A stretch of DNA of 24,410 nt from a virus (Duplodnaviria; Caudoviricetes), in IMG/VR virus record IMGVR_UViG_3300009108_000052, positions 1-24,410 of that record; one strand, given 5' to 3'. The stretch's first letter is position 1. Every line of letters begins with the position of its first letter. Below are positions 44 through 24,410 of the stretch, piece by piece. The translations under genes and the position numbers were made by a program. Under the pieces are notes generated by a model. The model was not told the origin of the DNA. It saw only the letters and a program-made list of their open reading frames with translations, and did no database searches.

Positions 44-727
44 ATGATATTATTCGAGACTGATTTATTCGTGATTATTATCACCTTTAAATCATTAAAT
101 AATAAAACGGGGGACATGTGTCAAGTTTGGATAATTAATAAAGAATTTGACCCAGTCACAGCCGTTAAAAACGGTAGTAATTCAATTATATGTTTTGATT
201 GTAAGCATAAGGGTGAGACCTGTTATGTAAATCAGGGTCAAGCACCTTTATCAGTTTATAAAGCATATAAGAACGGCTTATATCAGCCTTTAGACTATGA
301 TGTACTTAAATATCAATTAAAACATAAGTATGTTAGGTTTGGGGCGTACGGTGAGCCTGTATTGATTCCTATTGAATTAATGCAATTTATTGCAGAAAAT
401 TCGAAAGGCTATACGGGTTATACTCACCAGTGGAGCGATAAAAAATACAGCGATTATAAGCAGTATTTAATGGCTTCAGTTGATACAGCCGAAGAGTACG
501 AAAATGCGACTCTTGATGGTTGGCGTTGTTATCGTGTTAGTTCAGATAATACACCTTTAAAGGGTGAAATTATTTGTCCGAATACGACTGATAACATCCA
601 ATGTCGAGATTGTCGCTTGTGTGATGGTTTACATAATCATCCGAATGCAAAAAATATTGTTACACTTGTACATGGTACAGTTGGCAAAATTAACGCATTT
701 AATCGTATTGCAATTGCTACTATTTAA
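44..727 (+). CDS. Cys-rich conserved phage protein, function unknown
   Basis: Track start 29; better start is ATG 44 after GGAG at 31-34. Motifs CFDC..TCY, RFGAYGEP, GYTHQW, MASVD, ICP..CRDCRLC. Confidence 0.8.
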   Translation: MILFETDLFVIIITFKSLNNKTGDMCQVWIINKEFDPVTAVKNGSNSIICFDCKHKGETCYVNQGQAPLSVYKAYKNGLYQPLDYDVLKYQLKHKYVRFGAYGEPVLIPIELMQFIAENSKGYTGYTHQWSDKKYSDYKQYLMASVDTAEEYENATLDGWRCYRVSSDNTPLKGEIICPNTTDNIQCRDCRLCDGLHNHPNAKNIVTLVHGTVGKINAFNRIAIATI

Positions 728-774
728 TAATAAATCAAAGCCCACTGTAATGAGTGGGTTTTTACTTGTTATTA
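725..774 (+). repeat. Intergenic hairpin repeat R1
   Basis: TAATAATAAATCAAAGCCCACT-GTAATG-AGTGGGTTTTTACTTGTTATTA; includes upstream stop, followed by GAGG SD. Confidence 0.95.
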
Positions 775-789
775 TGCGAGGGCTAAAAA

Positions 790-1020
790 ATGTCAAAGAA
801 AAAATGGCTAGAAATAATGAAAGAACTTTCTATAGGAAAGGAAAGCGAAGTTATTCGCAATCCATTTTCGGGTGCTGAAGTAACATTAGACCCAGTAGAA
901 GTTGCCGTTTATGATTATATTAAGGGTTGCGAGATAACCAAAATATATACATATTTTGATGATGCAAGATACTGGTTTATGAAAAAGAATTCACAAGCCT
1001 ATATGATTTTGCTTGATTGA
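790..1020 (+). CDS. hypothetical phage protein (76 aa)
   Basis: GAGG SD, ATG, exactly fills space between R1 and R2. Confidence 0.85.
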   Translation: MSKKKWLEIMKELSIGKESEVIRNPFSGAEVTLDPVEVAVYDYIKGCEITKIYTYFDDARYWFMKKNSQAYMILLD

Positions 1021-1094
1021 TAATAAATCAAAGCCTGTTTTCTATAAATCCTAGATTAAATTCGGGGACGAAAACAGGTTTTTACTTGTTATTA
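1018..1094 (+). repeat. Intergenic hairpin repeat R2 (long apical variant)
   Basis: Same outer arms; inner stem replaced by CCTGTTTTC (1034-1042)/GAAAACAGG (1070-1078) with 27-nt loop. Confidence 0.93.
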
Positions 1095-1109
1095 AGCGAG
1101 GACTAAAAA

Positions 1110-1454
1110 ATGTCTAGAGTTAAATATAAAGTGAAACAAATCGATTGGGATTTAATACCAAATTTCGATAATCGTGCAAGTGTTGAATTTGACGATTATA
1201 TGAAAATAAAAAGTGGTGTTTTCCAAAAAGATTTAGGTGTTTCAAAACTTATAGACCTTGTAAAAAATCGTAACGAATGGTACGAAGTTTGCGAGGGCTA
1301 TATCAATGGCTATTCTTTATGGAATGCTTACCAAGAGGGTAACATCGGTGAGCGAACTTTTAAGGGTGCTTCAATATCAACTGGTGACATCTTGATAGAT
1401 GAAGATAACCAAGAGTGGCTTTTAACTGACCAAGATTTTGAATTGGTCACATAG
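1110..1454 (+). CDS. hypothetical phage protein; C-terminal SISTGDIL motif reminiscent of YodL-like domains
   Basis: GAGG SD; fills R2-R3; family resemblance is weak. Confidence 0.8.
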   Translation: MSRVKYKVKQIDWDLIPNFDNRASVEFDDYMKIKSGVFQKDLGVSKLIDLVKNRNEWYEVCEGYINGYSLWNAYQEGNIGERTFKGASISTGDILIDEDNQEWLLTDQDFELVT

Positions 1455-1456
1455 AT

Positions 1457-1504
1457 TGATAATAAATCAAAGCCCATCTACGGATGGGTTTTTACTTGTT
1501 ATTA
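1457..1504 (+). repeat. Intergenic hairpin repeat R3
   Basis: TGATAATAAATCAAAGCCCATC-TACG-GATGGGTTTTTACTTGTTATTA. Confidence 0.95.
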
Positions 1505-1518
1505 AGCGAGGATAGAAA

Positions 1519-1743
1519 ATGTCAAATATAGATGAATTCGCTGTAAGAGATACAAGCGAAGACAAAACCAAGATATTCGTGGATGAAAATCCAAGAGGTT
1601 GTTTTGACAATGCATTAAGCAAGGGCTTATTCGATAGATTCGAAATGCTCTACTTTATGTATATGTATTCCAAAGAGGGTAGAGATTATTTCAAGCATCA
1701 AAATACTAGAAATTATGTCTCATGCCAACGGGGTGAATCATGA
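1519..1743 (+). CDS. hypothetical phage protein (74 aa)
   Basis: GAGG SD after R3; ATGA overlap with next gene. Confidence 0.82.
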   Translation: MSNIDEFAVRDTSEDKTKIFVDENPRGCFDNALSKGLFDRFEMLYFMYMYSKEGRDYFKHQNTRNYVSCQRGES

Positions 1744-2042
1744 TGGAAAATTCTGAAATTAAAATGATAAGAGATTTTCGTGAAAGTGCGGGAATCGATT
1801 TTAGTGAAAGGGAAACTTTTCTAACTGTGCATCAGCCTGTTAAAGGTTGGTCAGTACAGCAGATAGAATACAGCAAGGAACATGAAAGTTTTATTCCTTG
1901 TGGATTCTTTCCAAATGGTGACATTCTCGAATGGGCTTGTTCATCGGAGGAAGACGCAATCGATGAGGGAATACAATTAGCAACAGAACTTGAATTTCCA
2001 TTTAATTACACCACTGAAAGTGGTCAACATATTTTGTGTTAA
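1740..2042 (+). CDS. hypothetical phage protein (100 aa)
   Basis: Coupled via ATGA; stop lies in R4 left arm. Confidence 0.82.
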   Translation: MMENSEIKMIRDFRESAGIDFSERETFLTVHQPVKGWSVQQIEYSKEHESFIPCGFFPNGDILEWACSSEEDAIDEGIQLATELEFPFNYTTESGQHILC

Positions 2043-2087
2043 TAATAAATCAAAGCCCACTGAAAAGTGGGTTTTTACTTGTTATTA
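2040..2087 (+). repeat. Intergenic hairpin repeat R4
   Basis: TAATAATAAATCAAAGCCCACT-GAAA-AGTGGGTTTTTACTTGTTATTA. Confidence 0.95.
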
Positions 2088-2102
2088 TGCGAGGAGTAAG
2101 AA

Positions 2103-2321
2103 ATGAAAAAAGTACCATTGTTTCAACCTTTCAAAGATATAACTGAGGGTTTTGAAAAATTGGCAGAAATCATTGAAAAGGTAGAAAATGATGATGCGAA
2201 ATACCATTTGATAATTTGGTATGGTTGTTTTCATCAGACCTACAATGAACACCTTGAAAAATTATATGATTGTTGGGCGAATGGTGAAGATGATGATGAT
2301 GTCGCAGAGGGTGAATCATGA
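2103..2321 (+). CDS. hypothetical acidic phage protein (72 aa)
   Basis: GAGGAG SD after R4. Confidence 0.82.
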   Translation: MKKVPLFQPFKDITEGFEKLAEIIEKVENDDAKYHLIIWYGCFHQTYNEHLEKLYDCWANGEDDDDVAEGES

Positions 2322-2425
2322 AATTAATTTTATGGTTATCATTCTTTGGGACTCTATTATTCTTTGTGGCAGTCGCTCTAATTCTCAATGAGTTTTCGAG
2401 AGTTGGACTTCCACCATTTTATTAA
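2318..2425 (+). CDS. small membrane peptide (35 aa, MKLILWLSFFGTLLFFVAVALILNEFSRVGLPPFY)
   Basis: Not in track; ATGA overlap, hydrophobic helix, stop abuts R5. Confidence 0.7.
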   Translation: MKLILWLSFFGTLLFFVAVALILNEFSRVGLPPFY

Positions 2426-2475
2426 TAAATAATAAATCAAAGCCCATCTACGGATGGGTTTTTACTTGTTATTTA
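2426..2475 (+). repeat. Intergenic hairpin repeat R5
   Basis: TAAATAATAAATCAAAGCCCATC-TACG-GATGGGTTTTTACTTGTTATTTA. Confidence 0.95.
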
Positions 2476-2500
2476 GAGCCTCACTTTGTGGGGGGGGGCA

Positions 2501-2522
2501 ACTATGTAATACAACCAGTTTT
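2501..2522 (+). repeat. 22-bp direct repeat copy 2
   Basis: Identical to 1-22; preceded by a G-run, followed by SD of ORF at 2545. Confidence 0.85.
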
Positions 2523-2544
2523 AAACTGCAAGAGAGGAAGTGAT

Positions 2545-2817
2545 ATGACTTATAGGAAAACCACCTTTAATGATTTGCACATAAAAATAGCAGATAGGTA
2601 TTTTGATTTATTCAAGAGCCTTGACCTCGGATATGTTCCAGAGAAAATTGATATTCTTATATCTCTGGGTTACTCACCTTTATCAGAAAGTGATTTACAA
2701 AGATTGCTTGATGGTAGTGATGAAGACTTAGCCCACGATGTTTCTGGAATTAATTCACATATTTCTAGAGAAACAAAACTTATGGATGAGACCTTTGTTC
2801 CTCGATGTATGAGATAG
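2545..2817 (+). CDS. conserved phage protein (possibly DUF6874-like)
   Basis: Track start 2488; ATG 2545 follows GAGG. Motif LL..SD..LAHDV.GI..H..R.T......FVPR recalled from a phage family. Confidence 0.75.
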   Translation: MTYRKTTFNDLHIKIADRYFDLFKSLDLGYVPEKIDILISLGYSPLSESDLQRLLDGSDEDLAHDVSGINSHISRETKLMDETFVPRCMR

Positions 2818-3100
2818 GGGGCTGATATTTTACAAGTGGGTTGCCGAGTGCGACCCACGAAAATGCAGTTACTCGAATACCCTTTGTGTAAGGGAGGTAT
2901 AGAAATAAATGCAACATGCTGAATCAACTATGCATTTACCACAGACTAGCAAAATCGGTATCACAATGTGTCGACTGATTGTGATGCTAAGAGTCCTCGG
3001 TAAAAGACGGTTCGTATCCATGATTAATGCCAATAACCTACAATAATATAATGTGAATGCAAATTACATTTATAAATTGTCAATTTGGAAGACACAAATT
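2818..3100 (+). ncRNA. candidate structured ncRNA A
   Basis: No credible ORF; consecutive helices with G.U pairs on + strand (2836-2858, 2957-2988 and others). Confidence 0.45.
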
Positions 3101-3105
3101 TCAAG

Positions 3106-3134
3106 TTGAATAAATGGTTTTAAAAATCTATACT
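3106..3134 (+). promoter_or_regulatory. sigma70-like promoter
   Basis: TTGAAT (3106-3111), 17 bp spacer, TATACT (3129-3134), AT-rich upstream. Confidence 0.65.
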
Positions 3135-3250
3135 GGTCGTTGGAGGACGACCTTAAAAATACTGTCTACTTTGATTTAGAGATTCTTCTCTAAGACAATC
3201 AAGGTAGACTTCCTCCTCTTTAACTTTTGGAGACTAGTTATGAAATAGTC

Positions 3251-3292
3251 AATATATAAAAGTCTACTTTTAGGGGTAGGCTTTTACATATT
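3251..3292 (+). repeat. Divergent variant of the intergenic hairpin repeat
   Basis: AATATATAAAAGTCTAC...GTAGGCTTTTACATATT; keeps the A.C mismatch and TTTTAC, directly before GAGG SD. Confidence 0.55.
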
Positions 3293-3309
3293 AATTATGA
3301 GGTGAAATT

Positions 3310-3555
3310 ATGACTTTTGAAGAATATGTATATGATTTCTATGGTCAAGGTGACGACAGTCTTTACGGTGAAGAATTCTTCCCGTCTACTGGTGGTGTTA
3401 CTATGGCTGAAATCAGACTAGCAACAAAAATCAGAGAGTTAAATTGTGAGTTACCTTTTGATGGTGACAGTCTAGACAGAGAGATTGTCAGAGACATCAT
3501 GATTAATTCTAGAAATCCAGTTGCTGAGGTAGAACACGGCAACAATTTGAAATAA
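3310..3555 (+). CDS. hypothetical phage protein (81 aa)
   Basis: GAGG SD; stop inside R6. Confidence 0.82.
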   Translation: MTFEEYVYDFYGQGDDSLYGEEFFPSTGGVTMAEIRLATKIRELNCELPFDGDSLDREIVRDIMINSRNPVAEVEHGNNLK

Positions 3556-3598
3556 TAAATCAAAGCCCACTGCTGAAGTGGGTTTTTACTTATTATTT
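3550..3598 (+). repeat. Intergenic hairpin repeat R6
   Basis: AAATAATAAATCAAAGCCCACT-GCTGA-AGTGGGTTTTTACTTATTATTT. Confidence 0.95.
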
Positions 3599-3614
3599 AT
3601 AGGAGGAATAAGTT

Positions 3615-3794
3615 ATGAAAGATATATTCTTAATAAAAATTAGAAATGTTTATGGTAATAGGTTAATTTACCCTGTTAATAGTCTCGCTCTATCAGTTGC
3701 AAAACTGATGGGTAAGAAAACTTTTAACAAAGGTGAAATTCAAGAAATCAAGAAGATTGGATTTGAAGTTCAAGTTGAGCAGGAGGTCTTATGA
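3615..3794 (+). CDS. small conserved phage protein (59 aa, NVYG...YP...GKKT)
   Basis: Not in track; AGGAGG SD, ATG 3615, TGA 3792-3794 overlapping next ATG. Confidence 0.8.
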   Translation: MKDIFLIKIRNVYGNRLIYPVNSLALSVAKLMGKKTFNKGEIQEIKKIGFEVQVEQEVL

Positions 3795-4213
3795 CGGATG
3801 TTATAGATTTGTTTCAATCGGAATTTGGTAATCCAAATAAGTTTAACTTCTTTGCCAGAAAATGTGATGGCTGTGGGTCGGGTATGAACACAGGTTATTT
3901 GGTATCCGATGGGTACACAGCATGTTCAGAAAAATGCTGTCGTAAAGTTGTCGGTGACGATAACTTCAATGATGCCATGACAGAGTGGAAAGAGCATGGT
4001 GATTCTGATTACATTTACTGGACTGACTGGGAAGACTTGGCTAGTGAAGTTGAATGTGATGGTGGTTACTACACCAAGACAGGAGAATTTATTGAATGTA
4101 CTGTTGAAGAAGCCAAAGAGATATTAGTTAAATCTGAATATTTCTCTGATATCTATTTGAGTCCCGATGAAAAGTATGAGAAGTTAATGAAAGAACATGG
4201 GGTAGAACAATGA
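3791..4213 (+). CDS. Cys-containing (CxxC..CxxxC) hypothetical phage protein
   Basis: AGGAGG SD; CDGC and CSEKC motifs. Confidence 0.85.
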   Translation: MTDVIDLFQSEFGNPNKFNFFARKCDGCGSGMNTGYLVSDGYTACSEKCCRKVVGDDNFNDAMTEWKEHGDSDYIYWTDWEDLASEVECDGGYYTKTGEFIECTVEEAKEILVKSEYFSDIYLSPDEKYEKLMKEHGVEQ

Positions 4214-4491
4214 AAAAATTCTACCCACCTGTTAAGTCAGTAACCTTGAGAGACCAACAGACCGTATGGAAAGTTAATTTCAGTGGGGTCAATGGTGATT
4301 TACTTGGCTCAATAAAAAAGACTGAAGCAAGTAATCTCAAGGAAGCAAGAGAAATATTTCTCAAAAAGTATTCTACTAAAGCGAAATGCTTGGCTAATTC
4401 AGATATTAAGGTCGAGGGAGTTCAATATGAACTCACTTGGAATATTAAGTATCAGATAATGAAATTGATGAGACCAATAATCTTAGATTAA
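4210..4491 (+). CDS. hypothetical phage protein (93 aa)
   Basis: ATGA overlap with previous gene. Confidence 0.78.
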   Translation: MKKFYPPVKSVTLRDQQTVWKVNFSGVNGDLLGSIKKTEASNLKEAREIFLKKYSTKAKCLANSDIKVEGVQYELTWNIKYQIMKLMRPIILD

Positions 4492-4502
4492 AGGAGGTAG
4501 AT

Positions 4503-4697
4503 GTGACTGAGAATGAGTTTTTAAAAAGTTGGCATAGGGCAATAGACCATGCCATGCAAATCGTAGATTCTGAGGATGAACGGTATTATGTAGCAGATAA
4601 TACTGGGTTGGTCATGCTCGATGATGTAGATTTGGAAACAGCGTGTGTATACGCCAATAAGATTGATGGCTGTACTGCGTTTAGAAAAATTAGATAG
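4503..4697 (+). CDS. hypothetical phage protein (64 aa)
   Basis: AAGGAGG SD, GTG start; stop inside R7. Confidence 0.78.
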   Translation: MTENEFLKSWHRAIDHAMQIVDSEDERYYVADNTGLVMLDDVDLETACVYANKIDGCTAFRKIR

Positions 4698-4740
4698 TAA
4701 ATCAAAGCCCATCTACGGATGGGTTTTTACTTATTATTTA
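4691..4740 (+). repeat. Intergenic hairpin repeat R7
   Basis: TAGATAGTAAATCAAAGCCCATC-TACG-GATGGGTTTTTACTTATTATTTA. Confidence 0.95.
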
Positions 4741-4752
4741 TAAGGAGAGTGA

Positions 4753-4932: not shown

Positions 4933-4934
4933 AA

Positions 4935-5201: not shown

Positions 5202-5202
5202 A

Positions 5203-5243
5203 ATATAGCACATCAGACAGGTGTGTTATATCTTATTTATTTT
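5203..5243 (+). terminator. hairpin with T-rich tail, possible terminator or processing site
   Basis: ATATAGCACATC-AGACA-GGTGTGTTATAT then CTTATTTATTTT. Confidence 0.4.
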
Positions 5244-5260
5244 ATGACATCTAGTACAGG
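5239..5260 (+). promoter_or_regulatory. putative phage RNAP promoter P1
   Basis: ATTTTATGACATCTAGTACAGG; matches 9677-9698 and 13355-13376. Confidence 0.65.
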
Positions 5261-5270
5261 AGGAAACATT

Positions 5271-5722: not shown

Positions 5723-6033
5723 TTATTTATGAATTAACTAATAAAGGTGACGACAAAAGTGATTTTTATTTATTTAAAGAATCACATCCCGATTCTGAAT
5801 CAATAGTAGTAGACCTATTCTTTAGCAAATATTATGCGACCAAAGATGAAGCAGTGAAATCAAAACGAGATGGTACAAGAATATTCAAACATGAATTGAA
5901 ACCTCTCTCTAGAGATGATGTTGCAATGATTCTATCTATGAATCATGTAGATGTATTTTATGAAAACGGTTGGAACGAACTTCATGATATTTCATCCTTG
6001 GTGAAAAATACTATTGAATTGGAGGTTTCATGA
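5719..6033 (+). CDS. hypothetical phage protein (104 aa)
   Basis: GGAGGAG SD, ATGA overlap. Confidence 0.8.
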   Translation: MIIYELTNKGDDKSDFYLFKESHPDSESIVVDLFFSKYYATKDEAVKSKRDGTRIFKHELKPLSRDDVAMILSMNHVDVFYENGWNELHDISSLVKNTIELEVS

Positions 6034-6266
6034 GGACAGATGATATAAGAGAAATGTTTAATAATATATGTTATCGGACTTTCGATAGAGATTGTTCAGT
6101 CCAAATGGACTCTTTTAAAATGTTGGTAAATAGACTTGATAGTTCGGAATCCAATTATGTAATTCAATGGATTCCGACCAATCCTCTGATGCCCCATAAA
6201 AGTCTAGTAAGGGTTTGGTGTAGCCAAACAGATTATGACGAGGGGGTTACTAATGAAGAAGAGTGA
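6030..6266 (+). CDS. hypothetical phage protein (78 aa)
   Basis: GGAGG SD, ATGA overlap. Confidence 0.78.
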   Translation: MRTDDIREMFNNICYRTFDRDCSVQMDSFKMLVNRLDSSESNYVIQWIPTNPLMPHKSLVRVWCSQTDYDEGVTNEEE

Positions 6267-6351
6267 TTATTGGGAAATTTTATCAACCCTAGTTGTCTTA
6301 ATTTTCCTCATTTGGCTACTTGTATATGTAGTAGATTATTTAATTGTTTAA
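6253..6351 (+). CDS. small membrane peptide (32 aa)
   Basis: Not in track; GAGGGGG SD; MKKSDYWEILSTLVVLIFLIWLLVYVVDYLIV. Confidence 0.6.
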   Translation: MKKSDYWEILSTLVVLIFLIWLLVYVVDYLIV

Positions 6352-6363
6352 GGAATTAGAGTC

Positions 6364-6651
6364 ATGAAAGTAGAAATATTAAAAAAATATATTGTAGAAG
6401 AGGGAACAGATTGGCACGGCGGTATTTTCGCCAAATATCAGTTCCCTAACGGTTATGGTGCAAGTGTCATTAAGAACAGTGTTAGTTATGGTGGTAAAAG
6501 TGGTTTATATGAATTGGCAGTTCTCAACAAGGATGGCAAAATTATATACGACACACCAATTACTGATGATGTTCTTGGGTACTTGACCCTTTTAGATGTA
6601 ACGAAACATCTGAAAGAAGTAAAAAACTTGGCACCCAAACTCGTATCCTAG
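6364..6651 (+). CDS. conserved phage protein (FPNGYGASV...GLYELAVL...TPITDDVLGYL family)
   Basis: AAGGA SD; motif widespread in phage small proteins. Confidence 0.85.
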   Translation: MKVEILKKYIVEEGTDWHGGIFAKYQFPNGYGASVIKNSVSYGGKSGLYELAVLNKDGKIIYDTPITDDVLGYLTLLDVTKHLKEVKNLAPKLVS

Positions 6652-6659
6652 GTTCATAT

Positions 6660-7180
6660 GGGGTTCAATAGTAGTCTGTCTTAGTATGGGCTATTATTGA
6701 TTTACGAAGGAAGTTGAAACTGACGAATGGGTTGGAGAACTTCGCCAAGAGTAATGCTATCTACACTAGTGGGCATTACAAAAGGTCTTTACTCGGTCTC
6801 GCACGAGATAAATAGTAAAGATGACAAGTAGTTGTATACACGACAGTTAACTAATGTACTTCAAGGCTGGGTATCCTTTCCTTTTCACACCATGAGATGA
6901 TTAACAAAAAAGGGGATGCTTGAGGAATATATGAAACAGATAAATGAGGAATGCTAACAAAGAAGAATTCGGTAACCTATGAGTCTATCCGTTAAAATCT
7001 ATAGGCTTTGTTTCACAGCAATTCTCTAGAAAGCATGATTATATTTTTCGAAAATAACTGCCCACCGAATTTAACCGAAGGGGGCAGAGAGAATTTCTCT
7101 GCTGGAGGGTGCAAGACCCTCTTCTTGGTGATATGGGAAGAATTTCCCATAGGGGGGTTCGATTCCCCCCACTTTTTTTT
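6660..7180 (+). ncRNA. candidate large structured ncRNA B (about 500 nt)
   Basis: About 540-nt gap with many helices, long-range pairings 6742-6751/7122-7131 and 6965-6973/7064-7072, and two T-arm-like hairpins. Confidence 0.55.
7152..7180 (+). terminator. intrinsic terminator-like hairpin
   Basis: GGGGGG-TTCGATT-CCCCCC-AC-T8. Confidence 0.6.
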
Positions 7181-7194
7181 AAGAGGAGATATTA

Positions 7195-7509
7195 ATGGCA
7201 AAAGATAAAAGTTACAAGATACACGGAACCACTGTGGACTCCAGTGTTGATATGCCCGATTCAATGGATGTCTATGATAGATATGGAGATTGGGTGGATA
7301 ATGTTCTAGTTGAGGAGGTGGATGGTCACCATAGTGCTGATGCTTACAAAGAGATGGCACTTGAGGAACAATTGGAAGAAATATATGAGACCGTAGTGGG
7401 TGACAGTGGGAGAGATAGGTTTTCCCACGGTGAACTCATTCAAGTTTTAAAAGACCTATATGATGATTCGCAAGTTTTACAAAATATTAATGACTATATG
7501 AGTAAATGA
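7195..7509 (+). CDS. hypothetical acidic phage protein (104 aa)
   Basis: GAGGAG SD. Confidence 0.82.
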   Translation: MAKDKSYKIHGTTVDSSVDMPDSMDVYDRYGDWVDNVLVEEVDGHHSADAYKEMALEEQLEEIYETVVGDSGRDRFSHGELIQVLKDLYDDSQVLQNINDYMSK

Positions 7510-7540
7510 AATGATGGCACAAGAAATGAAGGAATAAATT

Positions 7541-7810
7541 ATGAAAGTAGTAAGGAACAATTGTTATGGCGGTTACGCCTTATCAGAAGAAGCATATAAA
7601 TACTTAGACTTGCCTTGGGATGGCTATGGATTTGAGTTTGAAAACCATAGAGAAAACCCTAGATTGGTAGAAGTGGTTGAAGCATTAGGTAAGAAAGCCA
7701 GTGGTAGATGTGCAAACTTAATAATAGTTGAAATACCTGATGATGCTGAATGGTACATTGATGAATACGATGGTTGGGAAACCGTCAGAGAAAAACATAG
7801 AACATGGTAG
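7541..7810 (+). CDS. conserved phage protein (N.CYGG..LS...VEIPDD..W.I.EYDG.E family)
   Basis: AAGGA SD; recognisable phage family motif. Confidence 0.85.
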   Translation: MKVVRNNCYGGYALSEEAYKYLDLPWDGYGFEFENHRENPRLVEVVEALGKKASGRCANLIIVEIPDDAEWYIDEYDGWETVREKHRTW

Positions 7811-7821
7811 AATAGGAGTAA

Positions 7822-8070
7822 ATGATGGATCAGAAAAAACTGAAAAAATTGGAAGATGTGTACAAACGCAGTCCACAGTATAAATATATTTATTTGGATT
7901 ACGGTGAAGTTATAGAAGAAGTTACTGTTATTGCTAGAGACCGTGCAGAAGCCGATGAGTTGAAAGATGAAGGTCACGGGGAATGGAGAAGACTTCGGGA
8001 GGACTGGAGTGATTCTCGTTTTGATAGAATTGAGGAGATAACCGATGAGGAATATGATGAGAGTATATGA
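7822..8070 (+). CDS. hypothetical phage protein (82 aa)
   Basis: AGGAG SD. Confidence 0.8.
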   Translation: MMDQKKLKKLEDVYKRSPQYKYIYLDYGEVIEEVTVIARDRAEADELKDEGHGEWRRLREDWSDSRFDRIEEITDEEYDESI

Positions 8071-8242
8071 TAAGAAATTTATTATTTATTGCTATGGTGA
8101 ACACTGGCATATAAATTGGTTGAAAAATTCTGATGTAACACTTGAGGAGTTTTTCAAGGAACATGATGTAGAAATCGTTGACACAGATATTGATGGAGAA
8201 GAGATAAATGATATTAATAACTTTGAAAGAGCAGAGCGGTGA
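8057..8242 (+). CDS. hypothetical phage protein
   Basis: Track start 8045; GAGG at 8047-8050 favours ATG 8057. Confidence 0.72.
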   Translation: MRVYDKKFIIYCYGEHWHINWLKNSDVTLEEFFKEHDVEIVDTDIDGEEINDINNFERAER

Positions 8243-8495
8243 ACAGGAGTATTTCTCTTATCACTATATGCGTAGTATGACGACATCTGATTACTACGAT
8301 AATCCTAATAAAACTGAATATGAATTGGATGTGGAAATCATGACCGAACTTGGTTATGATGTCTATGAAGATAACTATGAAGAGGATGTTAGTATGTGGT
8401 GGTTTGATACTCGTCTAGTTGGTATCGATGGGATTCAAAATCTATCTGAGACCAGATTTAAAACATTAATTGAACTGGGGATATTGTATGAATGA
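8208..8495 (+). CDS. hypothetical acidic phage protein (95 aa)
   Basis: GGAG upstream; part of the overlapping gene chain. Confidence 0.75.
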   Translation: MILITLKEQSGEQEYFSYHYMRSMTTSDYYDNPNKTEYELDVEIMTELGYDVYEDNYEEDVSMWWFDTRLVGIDGIQNLSETRFKTLIELGILYE

Positions 8496-8730
8496 TAAAC
8501 ACTTAATAAAACAATTGGACAGAGAGATAGATTCTCTGAGAAGTGCGTTAAGTTATCAAGTTTCTGTCCGTAACCAAATTATTGATTGGTTAGAGGGCGA
8601 GATTGAACATAACGAACCTGTTATAAATGGTGATGAGGTATTAACTGATGGGACTGATGATATTCATGTTGGTCGTTCCGATTGTGCTAAGGCTTTACTT
8701 AGGCAAATCGCAAAATTTGAGGAGTGGTAG
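8488..8730 (+). CDS. hypothetical phage protein, coiled-coil N-terminus
   Basis: Track start 8470; ATG 8488 after GGGGA. Confidence 0.75.
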   Translation: MNDKHLIKQLDREIDSLRSALSYQVSVRNQIIDWLEGEIEHNEPVINGDEVLTDGTDDIHVGRSDCAKALLRQIAKFEEW

Positions 8731-8731
8731 G

Positions 8732-8917
8732 ATGAACATTAAAAATAAGTTAGGTGAAGAACTACTGTCCGATGGTGAAGTATTAGACATTCTTTATGAT
8801 TGGATGGGTAGAGAAACAAGAAATTATACTTTAGAGCATAAAGGTAGAAAACTACTGGCTAGAGAAGTTCTAGAGTTTCTTAGGGAAAATGAACAAGAGG
8901 AGATGTCTAATGAATAA
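8732..8917 (+). CDS. hypothetical phage protein
   Basis: Track start 8648; ATG 8732 after GAGGAG. Confidence 0.75.
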   Translation: MNIKNKLGEELLSDGEVLDILYDWMGRETRNYTLEHKGRKLLAREVLEFLRENEQEEMSNE

Positions 8918-9167
8918 AAAACCTTTTTGGAATAGAATGGTAGATGCTTACTATGAAAATGAGCAGAAGTCAGCAGAAGAATTGGACAAGGTTTGTGGTC
9001 TCTTAGCGTGGTTAAGTGTACACGCTGACGAGGACTGTCCAAGTGAATACAGAACCAAGCACTTTAGAAATGCTTTAGATGATGCAGTGGATTATTTAGA
9101 AAAAAGTGGTTGGTATGAGTTCAATAAAAACAAATGTTTAAGGGAGTCTAAAAATGACAATACCTAA
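8910..9167 (+). CDS. hypothetical phage protein
   Basis: Track start 8889; ATG 8910 after GAGGAG. Confidence 0.75.
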   Translation: MNKKPFWNRMVDAYYENEQKSAEELDKVCGLLAWLSVHADEDCPSEYRTKHFRNALDDAVDYLEKSGWYEFNKNKCLRESKNDNT

Positions 9168-9789
9168 ATTAATTGCAATGGTAGAAAGGATTTGCAGAAG
9201 GACAATCCAAGTTATATTTAAAGATATTGATGTTGAGGTGAATCATAACTATTTAGATCACTACCCGAAAGGGGAAGTTAGTGTCTCTGGTAGTTATGAT
9301 GACAACTCTGGTGAAGTTTGTATAACACTTATCTCTAGTTTTAATGACTCGGAAGTCTTTGATTTTAATGATAAAAGTTATGACTGGTTTAACAGTGAAT
9401 TGGTTAAAGTTTTAAGACACGAAGGAATTCACATTGAGCAAGATTTGAGAAATGATTTCTCACCCAGTCTCCACTCTGACGAGCATACTTACTTTTCCGA
9501 TGATTTGGAAATTGAAGCATATGGAAGAGCAGATGTTCCGTTAGAAGTTAGAGAAAGTTCGGAGGGTAGTTCTAAAACAGTAGAGATGTATATAGATATG
9601 TTCGGAAAAGACAGTGACGAAGTGAGAAAACTTTTACATTTCTACAAGATAGAGACAGGTTTGGATTACCCTTTGAATTATATGACATCTAATACAGAAG
9701 ACCTAACTAAAGCAGAATGTTTTAATGCAATAGTTGAAGGTATGAAAATATTAGGTTGGGATGATGAAAAGGAACATAATGGAAAATAA
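9154..9789 (+). CDS. HExxH zincin-like (putative metallopeptidase) protein
   Basis: LRHEGIHIEQ followed by YFSDDLEIEAYG; GGGAG SD. Confidence 0.65.
   Translation: MTIPKLIAMVERICRRTIQVIFKDIDVEVNHNYLDHYPKGEVSVSGSYDDNSGEVCITLISSFNDSEVFDFNDKSYDWFNSELVKVLRHEGIHIEQDLRNDFSPSLHSDEHTYFSDDLEIEAYGRADVPLEVRESSEGSSKTVEMYIDMFGKDSDEVRKLLHFYKIETGLDYPLNYMTSNTEDLTKAECFNAIVEGMKILGWDDEKEHNGK
9677..9698 (+). promoter_or_regulatory. putative phage RNAP promoter P2 (upstream of clpX and RNAP)
   Basis: ATTATATGACATCTAATACAGA. Confidence 0.6.
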
Positions 9790-11113
9790 AGACTGTATTT
9801 GTGCAATTTGCACAGGAGGTAAGTCAGATAAGGATATATTTAGACTTATTGAGTATTATAAAAAAGTTGTATGTGAGGTTTGTTTGCAGACAGTAGTGGC
9901 ACCTGCCTCACCTAAACTTTTTATCAATTATGTCAATAAAGGAAAAATCCTTTATGAAGATTTAAAGAAAGAACAAGATTACATAGAGTCACTAGATGTG
10001 GTAGATTCTTATTTTGAAGACAATGATGTTGGATATGCTGTTAAACCCGATGGTTCAATTATAAAAGCAAAGGGTGTCAGTGGTAAAGAGATAGAAGAAA
10101 CGACACCAAAGACCCTATTTAATTATCTAGAGGAAAATGCAGTAGGTCAAACAGAGGCAAAGAAAACTTTATCAGTTGCAATGTATAACCATTTTAAAAG
10201 AATTAAATTGAAGAGAGAAGGTATAGAAATTAACAAAAACAACATACTTCTTGTAGGAGGGACAGGTGTTGGTAAAACCTTCATAACTTCATTATTAGCA
10301 AAGAAATTGAATTTGCCATTCGTTGTTGCAGATGCAAACAGTTTAACCCAAGCAGGGTATGTTGGGGGCGATGTAGAGGACATATTGGACTCACTTGTAC
10401 AGAAAGCCAAAGGAAATTTAGATAAGGCACAGTGTGGAGTCGTTATTATTGATGAAATAGACAAGATTTGTTCTAATAAGTCTACAGGAGTTAAAGGAAG
10501 AGATCCGAGTGGTGAGGGTGTACAACAGGCACTTCTAAAATTTATCGAAGGTGGTGAGTTCAGAGTAGGTGCAGGTTATAAGAATGGTGTTAAGAAGAAA
10601 AGTTATATATTTGATACTACAGATGTTCTTTTTATTGTTGCAGGTGCTTTTACTGAAATTGAGGAAATAGTAATTTCAAGAGAAAGAGGTGACAGTATGG
10701 GTTTCCTAAGTGGCAACCAAGACAAATTGAGCAAGGATGAAATATATAGAAAAGTCGCCCACGAGGATTTTGAAAAATTTGGTATAATTCCTGAATTGTT
10801 GAGTAGATTACCAACTAGGGTCTCGTTAAATCCCCTTACTGAATCAAACCTAATAGATATTATGTCGAAAATTAACAACAACTTGGTAAGCCAATACAAG
10901 CATTTATTTGCAGAGGATGGGGTCGAATTTAAAATTACAAAAAGTGCGTTACAAGAAATTGCAAGGAGTTCTATATTAGAAAATACAGGTGCGAGAGGTT
11001 TGCACGGAATATTCGAACACCTTTCTAGAGAAATTATGTTTGAGTCGCCTTCTGACGATTTGATAACTGATTTCACAATAACTAAAGAAGATGTTATTAA
11101 CTTAACTTTATAA
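9779..11113 (+). CDS. clpX: ClpX-like AAA+ unfoldase
   Basis: N-terminal CAIC..CEVC Zn motif, GQTEAKK, Walker A GGTGVGKT, GYVG pore loop, Walker B IIDEIDK, GEGVQQALLK, MGF loop, GARGL; track start 9761, ATG 9779 after AAGGA. Confidence 0.93.
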   Translation: MENKDCICAICTGGKSDKDIFRLIEYYKKVVCEVCLQTVVAPASPKLFINYVNKGKILYEDLKKEQDYIESLDVVDSYFEDNDVGYAVKPDGSIIKAKGVSGKEIEETTPKTLFNYLEENAVGQTEAKKTLSVAMYNHFKRIKLKREGIEINKNNILLVGGTGVGKTFITSLLAKKLNLPFVVADANSLTQAGYVGGDVEDILDSLVQKAKGNLDKAQCGVVIIDEIDKICSNKSTGVKGRDPSGEGVQQALLKFIEGGEFRVGAGYKNGVKKKSYIFDTTDVLFIVAGAFTEIEEIVISRERGDSMGFLSGNQDKLSKDEIYRKVAHEDFEKFGIIPELLSRLPTRVSLNPLTESNLIDIMSKINNNLVSQYKHLFAEDGVEFKITKSALQEIARSSILENTGARGLHGIFEHLSREIMFESPSDDLITDFTITKEDVINLTL

Positions 11114-11126
11114 AAACGGAGGTTTT

Positions 11127-13355
11127 ATGGATAAGAGGGAACTACTATTATTACAAATCTCGTCACAATTAAATCATATGTCCCAAACGATAAGCAAGGG
11201 ACGGCAGTCTGCATTTAAGAAAGTTTTACTCGGTGCAGACAGTGTAAGAACAATAGCAGAAGATATTCTAGATTTTACAATTAGTGCGTTGTCGAAAGGT
11301 ACAGCGTTGACATCGACAGCATCAGCATTGGCTTCTAGAATGAATGTGCATACTCAATTCAATTTAAAATCGGGGACTTCACAGAAAGCAGAGGCTACTA
11401 TGATCTCAGCAGGAGTAGAAGCCTTAGGTTCCTTAGGGTCTCTTGGTTACACACAAGTGGTGACAGAGTCTCAAGGTGTTATGAAATTGAATAGATTAGA
11501 TTTTAAAGATGAGCGAAATTTACTTTTTCGTTATTTTCAAGAAATAAAACAGGTGTCGCCAATCGACTTACCCCTAGAGGAGTACAAGGGTTGGACACAT
11601 CCATACAAGAATGGTGTGCCAATAGTCAAGAAGATGCCACCAGAATTAAGTAAAAAATACCTGTATAAGAGGATGCCAAAAGTATACGATGCTTTGAACT
11701 CTTATGGGTCAACATCATTTACAGTGAATGAGGAGTTGTTGGAAATTGTCAAGGAGTTTGACAAGGACGACCACCCCTATATACCTAAAGCTGTAGATAG
11801 TGAGGAAGTAAGCAAGTCCCTCAAGAGTCTTCTGAGTTTCAAAAGAACATCAGAATTTGTAGGGAGACAAGCAAAGAAGTGGTATCTGGCTAATGTCAGT
11901 CACCAACTCTTAAAGAAAGGTCTAACAGTTGCCCAGATAGACGGTAGAAGTAATACTTACAAGAAGAGAAAAGCCTCTGGATGGATGAAGGATAAATCAT
12001 CAGATGCTTTGGATATAGTAAGAGCATCTTCCAAGAGATATGAATTTGACAGGGTTATGGATATGGCTACTCTAATGATTGATAAGGCTTTTCATTACGA
12101 TTTTCAATTAGACAGCAGAGGTAGATTTTATCCAATTGTTAATTACTTTGAACCTACAGGCTCAGATTTAGCGAAAGGATTATTGATGTTTAATCACGGA
12201 GTGTATTGGACTGAAGAAGTCGAAAGGGCTTTGGCAATACATACAGCAAATTGTGCAGGTGAGGACAAGATATCTATGGATGATAGAGTCCTCTGGACTT
12301 ATGTTTGGATGCCAGAGATACTAGAGGCATCTGAAGACCCTCTGAATTCTAAGTGGTTAAGACAATTCAGTGGCGATAAGAAGACCAAGTTTCAATTAAT
12401 ATCTGCTATCTTAGAGTGGAAGAAGTTGGAAGAGATGGGTAGGGATGACTATGTTTGTCATTTACCTATAGGTCTAGATGCAACCAATTCTGGGCTACAA
12501 ATCTTATCCGCTATGACTAGGGATAGGACAGGTGCTGAAGAGACAAATGTGGTAAACCATCCAAGTAAAGAAATTGGAGACGCATACATGGTTATAGCGA
12601 GATCTGTTCTTGATGGTGGTTTCTCTTATAAGAGTTTTGAAGATTTAGGTGATAAGGCTTGGAGGAAACTTTGCAAAAGACCAACAATGTCTTACTACTA
12701 CGATGCTGGTAGAGGTTGTATACAAGACCAAACCTTCGAAGATAGGCGTGACCACGGTTATGATATATTGTCAGAGATGACATATGATGATTCTGCCTAC
12801 ATAGGTACTGCCATTTTTGATGGTGTTAGGTTGGCATTCCCTAGACAAACACAAGCTAAAGACCTTTTGAAAAGAGGTGTCTGTGTATATCTAGAGAATA
12901 GTGGTAACAAGCCAATGATTACTTGGAAGACAGCCACAGGATTTACTGCTTTCCAGAATTATGCAAAAACTTCTATTAAAAGAGTAAATTGTATGTTTGG
13001 GAGTAGACCTGTGAAATTGAGTTATCAGGTTTTTCTTGATGAGGCTAGAAAGACTGACCATGAGAGGGGCATAAGTGCTAATTTTGTACATTCTCAAGAT
13101 GCATCTCTATTAACTTTAGTTATCTGTAGACTAGCAGAACTCGGTGCAATCAACTTTATGATGATTCATGACCAGTTTTCAGTAAGTGCAGATAACTTAG
13201 AACTACTTCTTAATGTATTTAAGGAGGTTTTTCAAGAGATATTTGAAAAAGACCAGCTTGGATCTACAATAGAAGCTTTTGGTCTTGAAGATGAAATTGA
13301 CTATGGTGATTTACAAATGGATGAAATTTCGGAATCCAAGTATATTATCTCTTAA
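11127..13355 (+). CDS. single-subunit T7-family DNA-directed RNA polymerase
   Basis: DSRGRFY, motif A LDATNSGLQILS, motif B RKLCKRPTMSYYY, ANFVHSQDA, motif C IHDQF; GGAGG SD. Confidence 0.95.
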   Translation: MDKRELLLLQISSQLNHMSQTISKGRQSAFKKVLLGADSVRTIAEDILDFTISALSKGTALTSTASALASRMNVHTQFNLKSGTSQKAEATMISAGVEALGSLGSLGYTQVVTESQGVMKLNRLDFKDERNLLFRYFQEIKQVSPIDLPLEEYKGWTHPYKNGVPIVKKMPPELSKKYLYKRMPKVYDALNSYGSTSFTVNEELLEIVKEFDKDDHPYIPKAVDSEEVSKSLKSLLSFKRTSEFVGRQAKKWYLANVSHQLLKKGLTVAQIDGRSNTYKKRKASGWMKDKSSDALDIVRASSKRYEFDRVMDMATLMIDKAFHYDFQLDSRGRFYPIVNYFEPTGSDLAKGLLMFNHGVYWTEEVERALAIHTANCAGEDKISMDDRVLWTYVWMPEILEASEDPLNSKWLRQFSGDKKTKFQLISAILEWKKLEEMGRDDYVCHLPIGLDATNSGLQILSAMTRDRTGAEETNVVNHPSKEIGDAYMVIARSVLDGGFSYKSFEDLGDKAWRKLCKRPTMSYYYDAGRGCIQDQTFEDRRDHGYDILSEMTYDDSAYIGTAIFDGVRLAFPRQTQAKDLLKRGVCVYLENSGNKPMITWKTATGFTAFQNYAKTSIKRVNCMFGSRPVKLSYQVFLDEARKTDHERGISANFVHSQDASLLTLVICRLAELGAINFMMIHDQFSVSADNLELLLNVFKEVFQEIFEKDQLGSTIEAFGLEDEIDYGDLQMDEISESKYIIS

Positions 13356-13376
13356 TTATATGACATCTTATAGAGG
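13355..13376 (+). promoter_or_regulatory. putative phage RNAP promoter P3 (start of replication cluster)
   Basis: ATTATATGACATCTTATAGAGG immediately after RNAP stop; SP6-like TGACA...TATAG. Confidence 0.7.
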
Positions 13377-13390
13377 ATAGGAGAACAGGA

Positions 13391-13579
13391 ATGTCAAGTG
13401 AATTTACAGAATTATGTGAAATGTATGGGTTATCGCCCGGAGACCCTGAGGCAATAGATAAATTAATTCATTTTATGGCTGACCCAGATGAAGAGGATGA
13501 TACTTGGTATTTTAATGAAAATGCCGATGCGTTTGATCCTGATGATTTAGAGACGGAGGAAGAGGATGAAGAACGATGA
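13391..13579 (+). CDS. small highly acidic hypothetical protein
   Basis: AGGAG SD; D/E-rich. Confidence 0.78.
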   Translation: MSSEFTELCEMYGLSPGDPEAIDKLIHFMADPDEEDDTWYFNENADAFDPDDLETEEEDEER

Positions 13580-13808
13580 AGTAAATAATCCAAAACATTA
13601 CACTTCGGGAAAAATAGAAGCCCTAGACATTATTGAGGATACTACTAAAGACCTCAATGGTCTAGAGGCTTTTGCAATAGGGAGTGCTTTTAAATATCTT
13701 ATCAGATTTGACAAAAAGGGCAATCCAATACAAGACCTTCAAAAGGCAATATTTTATATTGAGAAAGTTATATTTGAAAGGCAAAAGCAATCAAAGGAGG
13801 AAACATGA
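13566..13808 (+). CDS. DUF3310 family protein (T7 gp1.7/SaV-like)
   Basis: VNNPKHYT.G.IE..D, KYL.R..KKG...QDL.KA..YI. Confidence 0.85.
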   Translation: MKNDEVNNPKHYTSGKIEALDIIEDTTKDLNGLEAFAIGSAFKYLIRFDKKGNPIQDLQKAIFYIEKVIFERQKQSKEET

Positions 13809-13942
13809 TAATTATAGAGGCTGTACTTGAAACAGGGGAAAAAGAATTTCAACTGTCGGATGGTAAAGTAGGTGAGAGAACTTACTCTATTGATTTTGAA
13901 AGCATGGATGAATTAGAAAAATATGTAGAGGAGGAAGAATGA
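13805..13942 (+). CDS. small hypothetical protein (45 aa)
   Basis: Not in track; AAGGAGG SD, ATGA overlaps at both ends. Confidence 0.72.
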   Translation: MIIIEAVLETGEKEFQLSDGKVGERTYSIDFESMDELEKYVEEEE

Positions 13943-14826
13943 AAGCTTTAATAGATGCTGATATTATTGTTTACTGGTCAGCAAACCATTGCCAAACCAA
14001 TTACTATAATGTTATAGATAAGGATGGTGAGGTTTTACAAGAGTATGACAGTAAGCGACATGCACAAAATGGGTTAGAGGATATAAACACCCTTTGGAAA
14101 TTACAAGCTTCTGAGACTGAAGAGTCTCCATATAGTGTAGTTTCTGGAAAGATAATTATTGAGCCTTGGTCAGAATGTGTTGAATTTATAACAGACTTTA
14201 TAAAGAGTCTAGTTAAGAAGACAAAAGCTGACGAGTACGAACTGCATTTGTCAGGACACACTAACTTCAGAAAAGATATTGCAGTTACAAAACCATATAA
14301 AGGTAATAGGAAAGGATATAAACCATTCTATTACCAAAAGGTTAGAGATTATCTTATAGAAGAACTTGGTGCATTGGTATCTGAAGATGAAGAAGCTGAC
14401 GATACATTAGCTATCGCTCAGACCAATGACAAGGACAACACAATCATTTGCACCATAGATAAAGATTTATGGACTGTTCCGGGTGCAAAGTATGATTTCA
14501 AGAGAGAAGAATCAAGCTATGTCACTGAATACGATGGTATAAGACATTTTCAATACCAAATGTTAGCAGGTGACCCAGTTGATAATATACAGGGTGTTCC
14601 TAAGATTGGTCCTGTTAAAGCGAAAAAAATCTTAGGCGACTATGATGATATCCAAACTACTTGGAATATCATTAGGGATTATTACAAGGACTCTTACGGA
14701 GATGACTGTAATGATATTATGTTAGAAATGGGTAGACTACTTTGGATACGACACAATGTCGGTGAGATGTGGGACTTACCTCTTTTCGAAAATGAATTAG
14801 ACAAGAAGGAGGAAACCAATGGCTAA
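13939..14826 (+). CDS. 5'-3' exonuclease / RNase H (T7 gp6-like, FEN superfamily)
   Basis: LIDAD, YKGNR, EADD, DKDL, GDPVDNIQGVPKIG. Confidence 0.92.
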   Translation: MKALIDADIIVYWSANHCQTNYYNVIDKDGEVLQEYDSKRHAQNGLEDINTLWKLQASETEESPYSVVSGKIIIEPWSECVEFITDFIKSLVKKTKADEYELHLSGHTNFRKDIAVTKPYKGNRKGYKPFYYQKVRDYLIEELGALVSEDEEADDTLAIAQTNDKDNTIICTIDKDLWTVPGAKYDFKREESSYVTEYDGIRHFQYQMLAGDPVDNIQGVPKIGPVKAKKILGDYDDIQTTWNIIRDYYKDSYGDDCNDIMLEMGRLLWIRHNVGEMWDLPLFENELDKKEETNG

Positions 14827-23316: not shown

Positions 23317-23369
23317 AAAAATTAAGGTCACAAATTGGACAATTAATGTCTTTTTGTGACCTTTTTTTT
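23317..23369. terminator. likely bidirectional intrinsic terminator at convergence point
   Basis: AAGGTCACAAA (23324-23334)/TTTGTGACCTT (23353-23363), T-tract on +, A-tract upstream. Confidence 0.75.
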
Positions 23370-23378: not shown

Positions 23379-23612
23379 TTAGTAGCCTCTAGCTCTTCGG
23401 ATATCAGCTAAAGTCTGTTGTGCCTGATTTCTTAAAGCATTACATTCTTTAACAGGTGTCCCTGCCTTAAGATTTTCTTTATACTCGTTGTTAATCATCC
23501 AAGTATTACACTTATTTGTCCCTGCATATTTCTCTGGACCACCATGCTCTCTTAAAAGCTCCAAGTCTGTTATGCCCATATGGGACAGTATATTATGATC
23601 TTTATATGGCAT
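23379..23612 (-). CDS. hypothetical protein (77 aa)
   Basis: GGAGG SD on - strand within the end of the upstream gene. Confidence 0.78.
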   Translation of the reverse strand: MPYKDHNILSHMGITDLELLREHGGPEKYAGTNKCNTWMINNEYKENLKAGTPVKECNALRNQAQQTLADIRRARGY

Positions 23613-23613
23613 T

Positions 23614-24410
23614 TTAGCCTCCCATTAATACTTCATTTAAACTACTATAACCTGCTGGGGGTTTTAAATCACCCTCAGTTTTTGTACCCAATGCACCATC
23701 TTTATAAGATTTAATACCTCTAGCTATCTCCCTTTTATTTGGATTAAGCATTCTCTCGTTTACTCTTTCTACGACTTCATTGAATGGTATACCAGTTGCT
23801 TTTGCTACTCCTTCTATCAACTCTTTCCTTAGATTATAACCATTATGCATTTCAATGAATACTTTACCAGCTATCTCTTTAGTCTTTCTAACATCTGGAG
23901 CCATGATAAAGAAAGCATCATGAACTACATATACAGGTACCCCTGCCTCGTTTAGTGCAATAACTAATTTAGTTAAATACCCAGCATCTACCATATGAAC
24001 TGCATTAGGGGATAAAGCTGAAGCCATACTCTTCATAGAGTCAGTTACAAATGGTTCTTCGTGTACCATTTTATTCTCTACTGCCCACACTCCTAAATCC
24101 GCAGAACTAATCCCTTTTCTAATAGCCGCTGGTGTTGATGCCATTCTTATAGCCAATGGATCAGTAGGTGCAATTGGAATTTCACTTGTTAATGTAATGT
24201 CTTTTTTCGCATAAGCTTCTTTCTTTTTCCCACTTTTAGTTAAACCTTTTGATTGTTTAATTTGAGGAAAATCTGGAAGTAAATTTACCTTTACTCTTTC
24301 CCGTGATACTTCAAACTGAGTTGCATATATTGTAAAATCAGTTTGATGACCAGAAGGTGATTTTACTAAAAGTGCTTTTCTAGGAGTACCTGATAATGGT
24401 GCTTCATTGT
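23614..24410 (-). CDS. C-terminal part of a second, divergent T7-family RNA polymerase (5' end outside window; possible virion RNAP)
   Basis: Frame stays open from 23614 to window end; LLVKSPSG, SALSPNAVHMVDA and VYVVHDAF match T7 WVTPDG, SGIAPNFVHSQD and IHDSF. Confidence 0.8.
   Translation of the reverse strand, partial: NEAPLSGTPRKALLVKSPSGHQTDFTIYATQFEVSRERVKVNLLPDFPQIKQSKGLTKSGKKKEAYAKKDITLTSEIPIAPTDPLAIRMASTPAAIRKGISSADLGVWAVENKMVHEEPFVTDSMKSMASALSPNAVHMVDAGYLTKLVIALNEAGVPVYVVHDAFFIMAPDVRKTKEIAGKVFIEMHNGYNLRKELIEGVAKATGIPFNEVVERVNERMLNPNKREIARGIKSYKDGALGTKTEGDLKPPAGYSSLNEVLMGG

Follow-up and report, generated by a model that had tools for sequence, protein, structure and literature searches.

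A predicted second, cysteine-free T7-family RNA polymerase, probably injected, in a marine podovirus-like phage

Phages of the Autographiviridae are defined by a single RNA polymerase (RNAP) and by having all of their genes on one strand. Virion RNAPs occur in tailed phages such as crAss-like phi14:2 and Thermus phage P23-45, the latter having both a virion and a non-virion RNAP; these virion enzymes have a two-barrel fold and are unrelated to the T7 family. T7-fold virion RNAPs have so far been studied in N4-like phages, as giants of 3500 amino acids (aa). The precedents for the arrangement described here are N4, with an injected 3500-aa RNAP (vRNAP) and a split RNAPII (PMC4496689), and Lactococcus phage KSY1, with genes for two single-chain T7-like RNAPs, gp014 and gp033 (PMC11476376). 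A lack of cysteines has been noted as a trait of N4-type vRNAPs (PMC2784036), and in the Schitoviridae the vRNAP stands in for ejection protein number three (PMC13434306).

Here we analysed a stretch of 24,410 nucleotides (the window), a podovirus-like genome fragment of a marine phage. Its plus strand encodes small early genes, a ClpX-like ATPase, a single-chain T7-like RNAP of 742 aa with seven cysteines (RNAP1; 11127..13355), an exonuclease, SSB, a primase-helicase, PolA, a ribonucleotide reductase (RNR) and endonucleases, after which two minus-strand ORFs close the window. The ClpX-like AAA+ ATPase is phage-encoded, lies directly 5' of RNAP1 (9761-11113, plus strand) and is retained in the relative G001 (56%), and the early region holds a strong G+C terminator-like hairpin at 7152-7180 (plus strand). 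Where the two converging gene blocks meet, a terminator-like hairpin with a T run can be read from the sequence (23324..23369, plus strand), although it is absent from the terminator-scan listing. The first minus-strand ORF (77 aa, 23379..23612) sits immediately 3' of the second and is retained there in 78 of 79 loci; it is possibly a cofactor or inhibitor. The second, which we call RNAP2, is cut off because the virus record stops at the window end, so that the window holds its 3' end only (23614..24410, minus strand, residues 1079-1342).

The first-pass annotation had taken this ORF to be open to the window edge and to carry the C-terminal catalytic domain of a second, divergent T7-family RNAP. 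The minus-strand frame indeed runs from 24408 to a stop at 23614-23616, giving 264 aa with no start needed in the window, and the SPSG, PNAVH and VVHDAF stretches are all present. The histidine and aspartate of motif C (H1241 and D1242; 23917..23922, minus strand) are the counterpart of T7 HD811-812. The unusually long spacing that had been remarked upon between SPSG and PNAVH is also right: this specificity-loop segment (24010..24348, minus strand) measures 113 aa, versus 45 aa in RNAP1 (11127) and 47 aa in T7, and is modelled as a long beta-hairpin region at low to middling confidence (pLDDT 56-80). Among the relatives, 17 long forms have 113-126 aa at this place and six short forms 67-72 aa. 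Even the 264-aa part passes the curated cut-off of Pfam PF00940 (RNA_pol), with 43.7 bits (E 2e-11).

An IMG/VR locus, L001, overlaps the window with 100% identity across 10,794 bases and completes the ORF (L001:4715-8743) to 1342 aa. Motifs A and B, on whose presence in the upstream part the identification hung, are both there, together with a DxxGR-type motif and motif C. In an alignment of 23 of the 26 relatives described below (about 30% identical overall), ten residues are invariant in 23/23 proteins: D672, R674 and R676 of the DxxGR-type motif (D-x-R-x-R, spelled DYRTR in RNAP2), D895 of motif A, R992, K996, Y1004 and G1005 of motif B, and H1241 and D1242 of motif C. The whole protein scores 62.1 bits against PF00940 (cut-off 22), a profile that all 23 members match, and a phmmer search of the PDB aligns three of its motifs with yeast mitochondrial RNAP. 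When residues 396-1342 were modelled with AlphaFold (pLDDT 78.8, pTM 0.79), they took on a right-hand, Pol I-like fold that matches T7 RNAP from about T7 residue 266 onwards (Foldseek E 1e-14; Z 29.9, rmsd 4.0 over 532 residues); scores are Z 19-25 against mitochondrial RNAPs and Z 14-19 against N4 mini-vRNAP (best 19.1, rmsd 5.1 over 572 residues). Motifs, Pfam score and modelled fold agree: the phage has a second T7-family RNAP, intact and very divergent, whose catalytic domain is C-terminal. A frameshifted or fragmentary gene is ruled out, as L001 and dozens of relatives have the ORF in one piece, and RNAP2 is no close paralogue of RNAP1, with which BLASTP finds a single 57-aa stretch (E 1e-4). 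We conclude that RNAP2 is, as judged from sequence and model, a single-chain T7-family RNA polymerase of 1342 aa with all catalytic motifs intact and predicted activity. Its N-terminal 400-430 aa or so received no Pfam, PHROG or ESM Atlas assignment. This part contains a PPI-x-D-x-x-G-x-x-x-DG-x-x-R stretch (residues 156-177, L001) that is found in the 17 long forms and not in the six short ones; to our eye it recalls ParB-like domains, for which the library search gave no hit.

A word-based search, which covered proteins of 738-2349 aa, yielded 26 RNAP2 relatives of 951-1412 aa with 31-100% identity. When 1.84 billion representatives were searched with RNAP2, seven clusters matched at E < 1e-30, while the next 126 matches, mostly covering the motif C stretch, started at 1e-7; because of this gap in E-values we consider the family discrete and deep. 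It is carried by 79 loci from two partly redundant collections. Using RNAP2 and a 1037-aa relative as queries, tblastn against 50,697 phage records returned only weak matches to ordinary RNAPs and no cultured carrier, and the host look-up found no relative among the genome contigs searched. A literature search that took in few subscription journals and no supplements produced no account of this family.

Among the large genes of the virion block, which lies on the opposite strand, RNAP2 comes last. Replication genes are reached in 67 of the 79 loci, always on the strand opposite RNAP2. The RNAP1 and RNAP2 genes lie on one contig in the L001/L003 contig and in three relatives (L018/L043, L019/L022 and G001), the other loci being too short to show this. 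An 853-aa ORF is seen upstream of RNAP2 in 37 of the 79 loci. In L057 the upstream region comprises a tail-fibre-like gene (E 2e-10) and 146-aa, G/Q-rich 237-aa, Gly-rich, 970-aa and 828-aa ORFs. The small virion-block genes of L057 are common to the relative G002 at 44-68%. The loci of the exact RNAP2 lineage analysed here, for which contigs of 49-63 kb exist, end short of the capsid genes, and the capsid context is taken from G002 (52 kb, 90% complete), where the virion block opens with terminase, portal, scaffold, capsid and tail genes. The large ORFs upstream of RNAP2 have no significant Pfam or PHROG match, so that their designation as putative ejection proteins rests on position and composition.

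The composition of RNAP2 sets it apart. Not one cysteine is present in its 1342 aa, nor in the two ORFs upstream, nor in N4 vRNAP, and the family has a single cysteine in 29,293 aa (23 relatives, 22 of them Cys-free). By comparison, none of 61 ordinary RNAPs of 740-900 aa, drawn from the search of 1.84 billion representatives, is Cys-free (median 10 cysteines), and RNAP1, DNA polymerase (DNAP), primase-helicase and RNR of the window have 7-14 cysteines each. The inheritance of RNAP2 likewise follows the virion genes. Locus L061 and the window lineage share 97% identity in DNAP, 96% in RNR and 96-97% in endonuclease I; RNAP2 is 34% and the 853-aa ORF 27% identical. Across seven close relatives, RNAP2 identity tracks that of the 853-aa neighbour (rho 0.76, p 0.02), not that of endonuclease I (rho 0.16, p 0.17); across all 17 loci, a small sample, it correlates with both (rho 0.70 and 0.58, respectively). 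These identity patterns show an exchange of RNAP2 as a module together with the upstream, apparently ejection-type genes. The annotation had called RNAP2 possibly virion-packaged, and this is now favoured because of its position at the end of the virion block, its lack of cysteines and its exchange with ejection-like neighbours. In several relatives (L028, L030, L031, L039, L073, L080 and others), two ORFs of about 330 and 600 aa, likely a class I RNR pair, stand at the site of the 658-aa RNR gene, other relatives keeping the class II gene.

Enzymes of this type extend beyond the RNAP2 family. In G002 the slot of RNAP2 is occupied by a different Cys-free RNAP of 1206 aa (PHROG 414, E 2e-10 to 2e-12), which aligns to the RNAP2 family from motif A to motif C (hhalign 96.6%, E 5e-10); its family reads FD instead of HD, and tblastn with it against the 50,697 phage records gave no match. 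The G002 capsid protein is closest to that of the cultured Roseobacter phage CRP-7 (44%), and capsid proteins of the 50-64 kb relatives resemble those of CRP-7, PaP3 and Venkman. G002 (L104) has the same virion block and two RNAPs; its replication module differs, with a separate primase, a helicase and a RecE-like exonuclease, and the window PolA finds no match in that record. CRP-7 (MK613349), a cultured podovirus, has an annotated T7-like RNAP, gp30, and a 'hypothetical' protein, gp33 (L110:9660-13367, minus strand), of 1235 aa without cysteines, encoded last in the opposite-strand virion block. A search of gp33 against PHROG gave no RNAP match, and the motifs of its family are altered, yet the aspartate of motif A, the R...YG of motif B and the HD of motif C are kept. 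The family matches RNA_pol clusters by language-model features (0.93), and the model of a relative 62% identical to gp33 folds as a T7-family RNAP (Z 19.7 to T7). We therefore predict from modelling that gp33, too, is a Cys-free RNAP of the T7 family, the second one of this cultured phage. The main text of the CRP-7 paper calls ORF30 alone an RNAP (PMC6918029), and our literature search, with the scope given above, met no account of gp33 as one. The gp33 and RNAP2 families are barely alignable (hhalign probability 15%, E 0.002), and profiles of the gp33 and G002 families found nothing among PDB sequences and did not match each other.

In 24 of 26 loci with the gp33 family, an ordinary RNAP lies on the other strand. 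We surveyed 24 of the longer records among 61 loci: in 12, PHROG 414 picks out a pair of RNAP-like ORFs on opposite strands (one of these ORFs being in two pieces), and six more, chosen for carrying the gp33 family, have it beside an ordinary RNAP. G009 has a weak second-RNAP candidate (E 5e-5), the fragment G019 shows the long enzyme only, and in three other surveyed fragments none was seen. Both RNAPs are present in 4/4 records that are at least 90% complete. In G024, a long RNAP-like gene lies in two open frames of 535 and 450 aa (G024:19463-20621), reflecting a split gene, a break or an assembly error. G012 (83% complete) has a related virion block and an ordinary RNAP, and no second RNAP was seen in the RNAP2 slot, where the block ends in ORFs of 930, 313, 393 and 550 aa (L176:464-6998) and smaller Cys-free ORFs fill the place; the RNAP2-type enzyme is therefore not universal in the group. 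An intact single-chain RNAP beside a divergent, possibly virion-packaged one had been described as an unusual transcription architecture. RNAP2 is indeed divergent, and intact as well, but the arrangement is no one-off: it marks a wider podovirus group that includes CRP-7, and two single-chain T7-like RNAP genes were already published for KSY1.

We built a tree on 266 core columns from 48 of 54 sequences, with ordinary RNAPs drawn from the matches to RNAP2; P0007, P0248, P0235-P0237 and KSY1 gp033 failed the motif cut and were left out. In this tree, whose branches are very long, one branch (UFBoot 91) separates the three RNAP2-type families together with N4 mini-vRNAP from the rest. Support is 94.5/89 in a tree of 22 taxa from which the CRP-7 family, N4 gp16 and KSY1 were left out. 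In an AU test, run with a warning of too few replicates, sisterhood of RNAP2 with T7 itself is rejected (p 0.016) and sisterhood with RNAP1 is not (p 0.086). A profile of the RNAP2 family gave no hit to N4 vRNAP. We treat kinship between RNAP2 and N4 vRNAP as a lead suggested by the tree, not as a result.

RNAP1 is less than 30% identical to the enzymes of the cultured phages listed, and its gene lies at least 11 kb from the genome's left end. Its motif B reads RKLCKRPTMSYYYDAG, with aspartate where the YG of T7 has glycine; this is kept in the 11 lineage loci read, and the site is YDAG in G002 RNAP1 and YSAG in CRP-7 gp30. Directly after the RNAP1 stop lies a T7-like promoter candidate, TATATGACATCTTATAGAG (13357..13375, plus strand), with a second copy 5' of the ClpX-like ATPase and RNAP1 (9679..9697, plus strand) and a third in the early region (5241..5259, plus strand). 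The copies at 5241, 9679 and 13357 follow the pattern (T/A)TATGACATCT(T/A)(A/G)TA(G/C)AG, for which the chance figure of 0.12 has inflated significance because the pattern was derived from the same copies. The candidate resembles the T7 promoter as printed in PMC13029058. Its core stands directly behind the RNAP1 stop in 17/17 loci with 86-100% RNAP1 identity; it is absent there in G001 (66% RNAP1 identity), and in G002 another T7-like sequence takes its place. Since two contigs keep the motif unaltered while their RNAP2 is only 44-49% identical, this duplex promoter likely belongs to RNAP1. For RNAP2, no promoter was found in the sequence searched, which stops short of the genome's left end.

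The early region also contains eight long intergenic hairpins (at 722, 1016, 1455, 2037, 2424, 3250, 3548 and 4690; 722..4741, plus strand), mostly just 5' of the ribosome-binding sites of early genes. Seven of the eight have the conserved flanks TAATAAATCAAAGCC ... GGTTTTTACTTGTTATT. They are built from an upper stem of at least 10 bp, a 3x3 internal loop and a lower stem of 9-10 bp with G-U pairs, capped by variable loops (UACG, GAAA, one long insert), and fold at z -5.4 to -8.1. Four copies were folded as either strand; stability is higher for the plus strand, and G-U pairs survive the differences among copies. No Rfam match was obtained, and no like repeat family appeared among the five largest listed per region in G002, G001 and CRP-7. 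The hairpins are likely RNA processing or termination sites, resembling the early RNase III sites of T7 or else terminators. N4-type template-strand promoters are disfavoured, since it is the plus-strand RNA with its G-U pairs that folds better.

We consider it probable that RNAP2 is a compact N4-type injected polymerase, placed in the slot of the third ejection protein, that hands over to RNAP1 with its own T7-like promoters. By analogy, it would most likely work like N4 vRNAP, yet it is not of that family by size or architecture. RNAP2 would be packed in the head and injected as the third ejection protein, the N-terminal 430 aa likely holding the promoter-binding and ejection-coupling parts. 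Once inside, it would transcribe the early genes, RNAP1 among them, and RNAP1 would then likely take over from its own promoters; the two promoter copies 5' of RNAP1 could let this enzyme boost its own synthesis after a first message from another enzyme.

It is also conceivable, if unlikely, that RNAP2 is injected mainly for a mechanical or priming job, such as pulling in the genome by transcription or making replication primers, with the host sigma-70 RNAP making early mRNA as in T7; the two readings overlap. The slot of RNAP2 is occupied in T7 by gp16, a protein linked with DNA entry (PMC13434306), and N4 vRNAP serves DNA replication too (PMC2784036). G012 manages without RNAP2, and the early hairpins are of the T7-like processing type. 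However, sigma-70-like sites in 1-14000 are at chance level (62 vs 54.4 +/- 8.2), a weak test as the genome's left end is absent, and the long, variable specificity-loop segment suggests sequence-specific initiation. We hold it to be decidedly improbable that RNAP2 stays out of the virion and serves late transcription, or acts in the cytoplasm as a partner of RNAP1. Such a role would fit the finding that the RNAP1 promoter motif has no copy on the virion-block strand up to 10 kb upstream of RNAP2, but the RNAP2 gene lies at the far end of the late block that it would have to transcribe, it encodes no cysteine where RNAP1 and the replication proteins have several, and its swaps involve the virion genes rather than those for replication. 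One might suspect an ejection protein with a structural or DNA-binding role, built on a polymerase fold that has lost catalysis, from the extreme divergence and fast, structural-protein-like evolution of RNAP2, the altered motifs of the CRP-7 family and the FD for HD of the G002 family (as in N4 vRNAP); this is hardly credible given that both catalytic aspartates and the R, K, Y and G of motif B are invariant in proteins about 30% identical.

Only tentatively do we extend the injected-polymerase relay to a large group of marine podoviruses of 50-64 kb, including CRP-7. In these phages a compact injected polymerase of 1000-1400 aa, replacing the third ejection protein, would work in relay with an intact T7-like RNAP; the compact enzymes would form a deep clade with N4 vRNAP, show what the giant N4 enzyme grew out of, and be swapped as a cassette with ejection genes, each with a new promoter specificity. 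If RNAP2 is injected, a version one-third the size of the N4 enzyme, beside an intact T7-like RNAP, would mean that the virion-RNAP strategy is wider and more modular; the compact enzyme would be a tractable model for threading an enzyme through an ejection channel and would bear on the origin of N4 vRNAP. The idea is open to testing, since CRP-7, a phage in culture, has a gene for which the same type of enzyme is predicted. Genes of the RNAP2 type escape annotation, as the missing PHROG RNAP hit of gp33 illustrates, and counts of phage RNAPs are therefore too low. The RNAP2 family also offers new single-chain polymerases whose specificity loops are unusual.

Compared with known systems, RNAP2 shares with N4 gp50 the T7-family fold, the absence of cysteines and the position at the end of a converging late block, which in the case of RNAP2 is behind putative ejection genes, and both phages have a second RNAP in the early/middle arm. 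RNAP2 and N4 vRNAP have a common motif B shape, K-x-P...YG-x-G, and group weakly in the tree; N4 vRNAP has FD in place of the HD of RNAP2. The two differ in size (3500 aa for gp50 versus 1342 aa, family range 1023-1412) and in architecture, as the polymerase domain of RNAP2 runs to the C terminus with no large C-terminal domain (CTD), whereas that of N4-type enzymes lies between an N-terminal domain (NTD) and a CTD. N4 RNAPII is a heterodimer of gp15 and gp16, while RNAP1 consists of a single chain (742 aa) and has duplex promoter candidates like those of T7, so that the phage lacks the heterodimeric RNAPII of the Schitoviridae. Structurally, RNAP2 is closer to T7 RNAP than to N4 mini-vRNAP. 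T7 RNAP is its best structural match, and the phage resembles the Autographiviridae in its T7-type primase-helicase, PolA, SSB, exonuclease and endonuclease I and in the promoter candidate right behind RNAP1, as T7 phi1.1A. It departs from their layout in having two RNAPs and converging blocks with the virion genes on the opposite strand. In KSY1 (NC_009817), gp033 (L113:15987-18449) has no cysteine in 820 aa and gp014 has 10, which hints, from composition, at a virion role for gp033. KSY1 differs in that its RNAP genes are on the same strand, its virion is phi29-like and the gene for the 820-aa gp033 lies before the packaging ATPase; no sequence link between gp033 and RNAP2 emerged in a 14-protein set (E 0.18).
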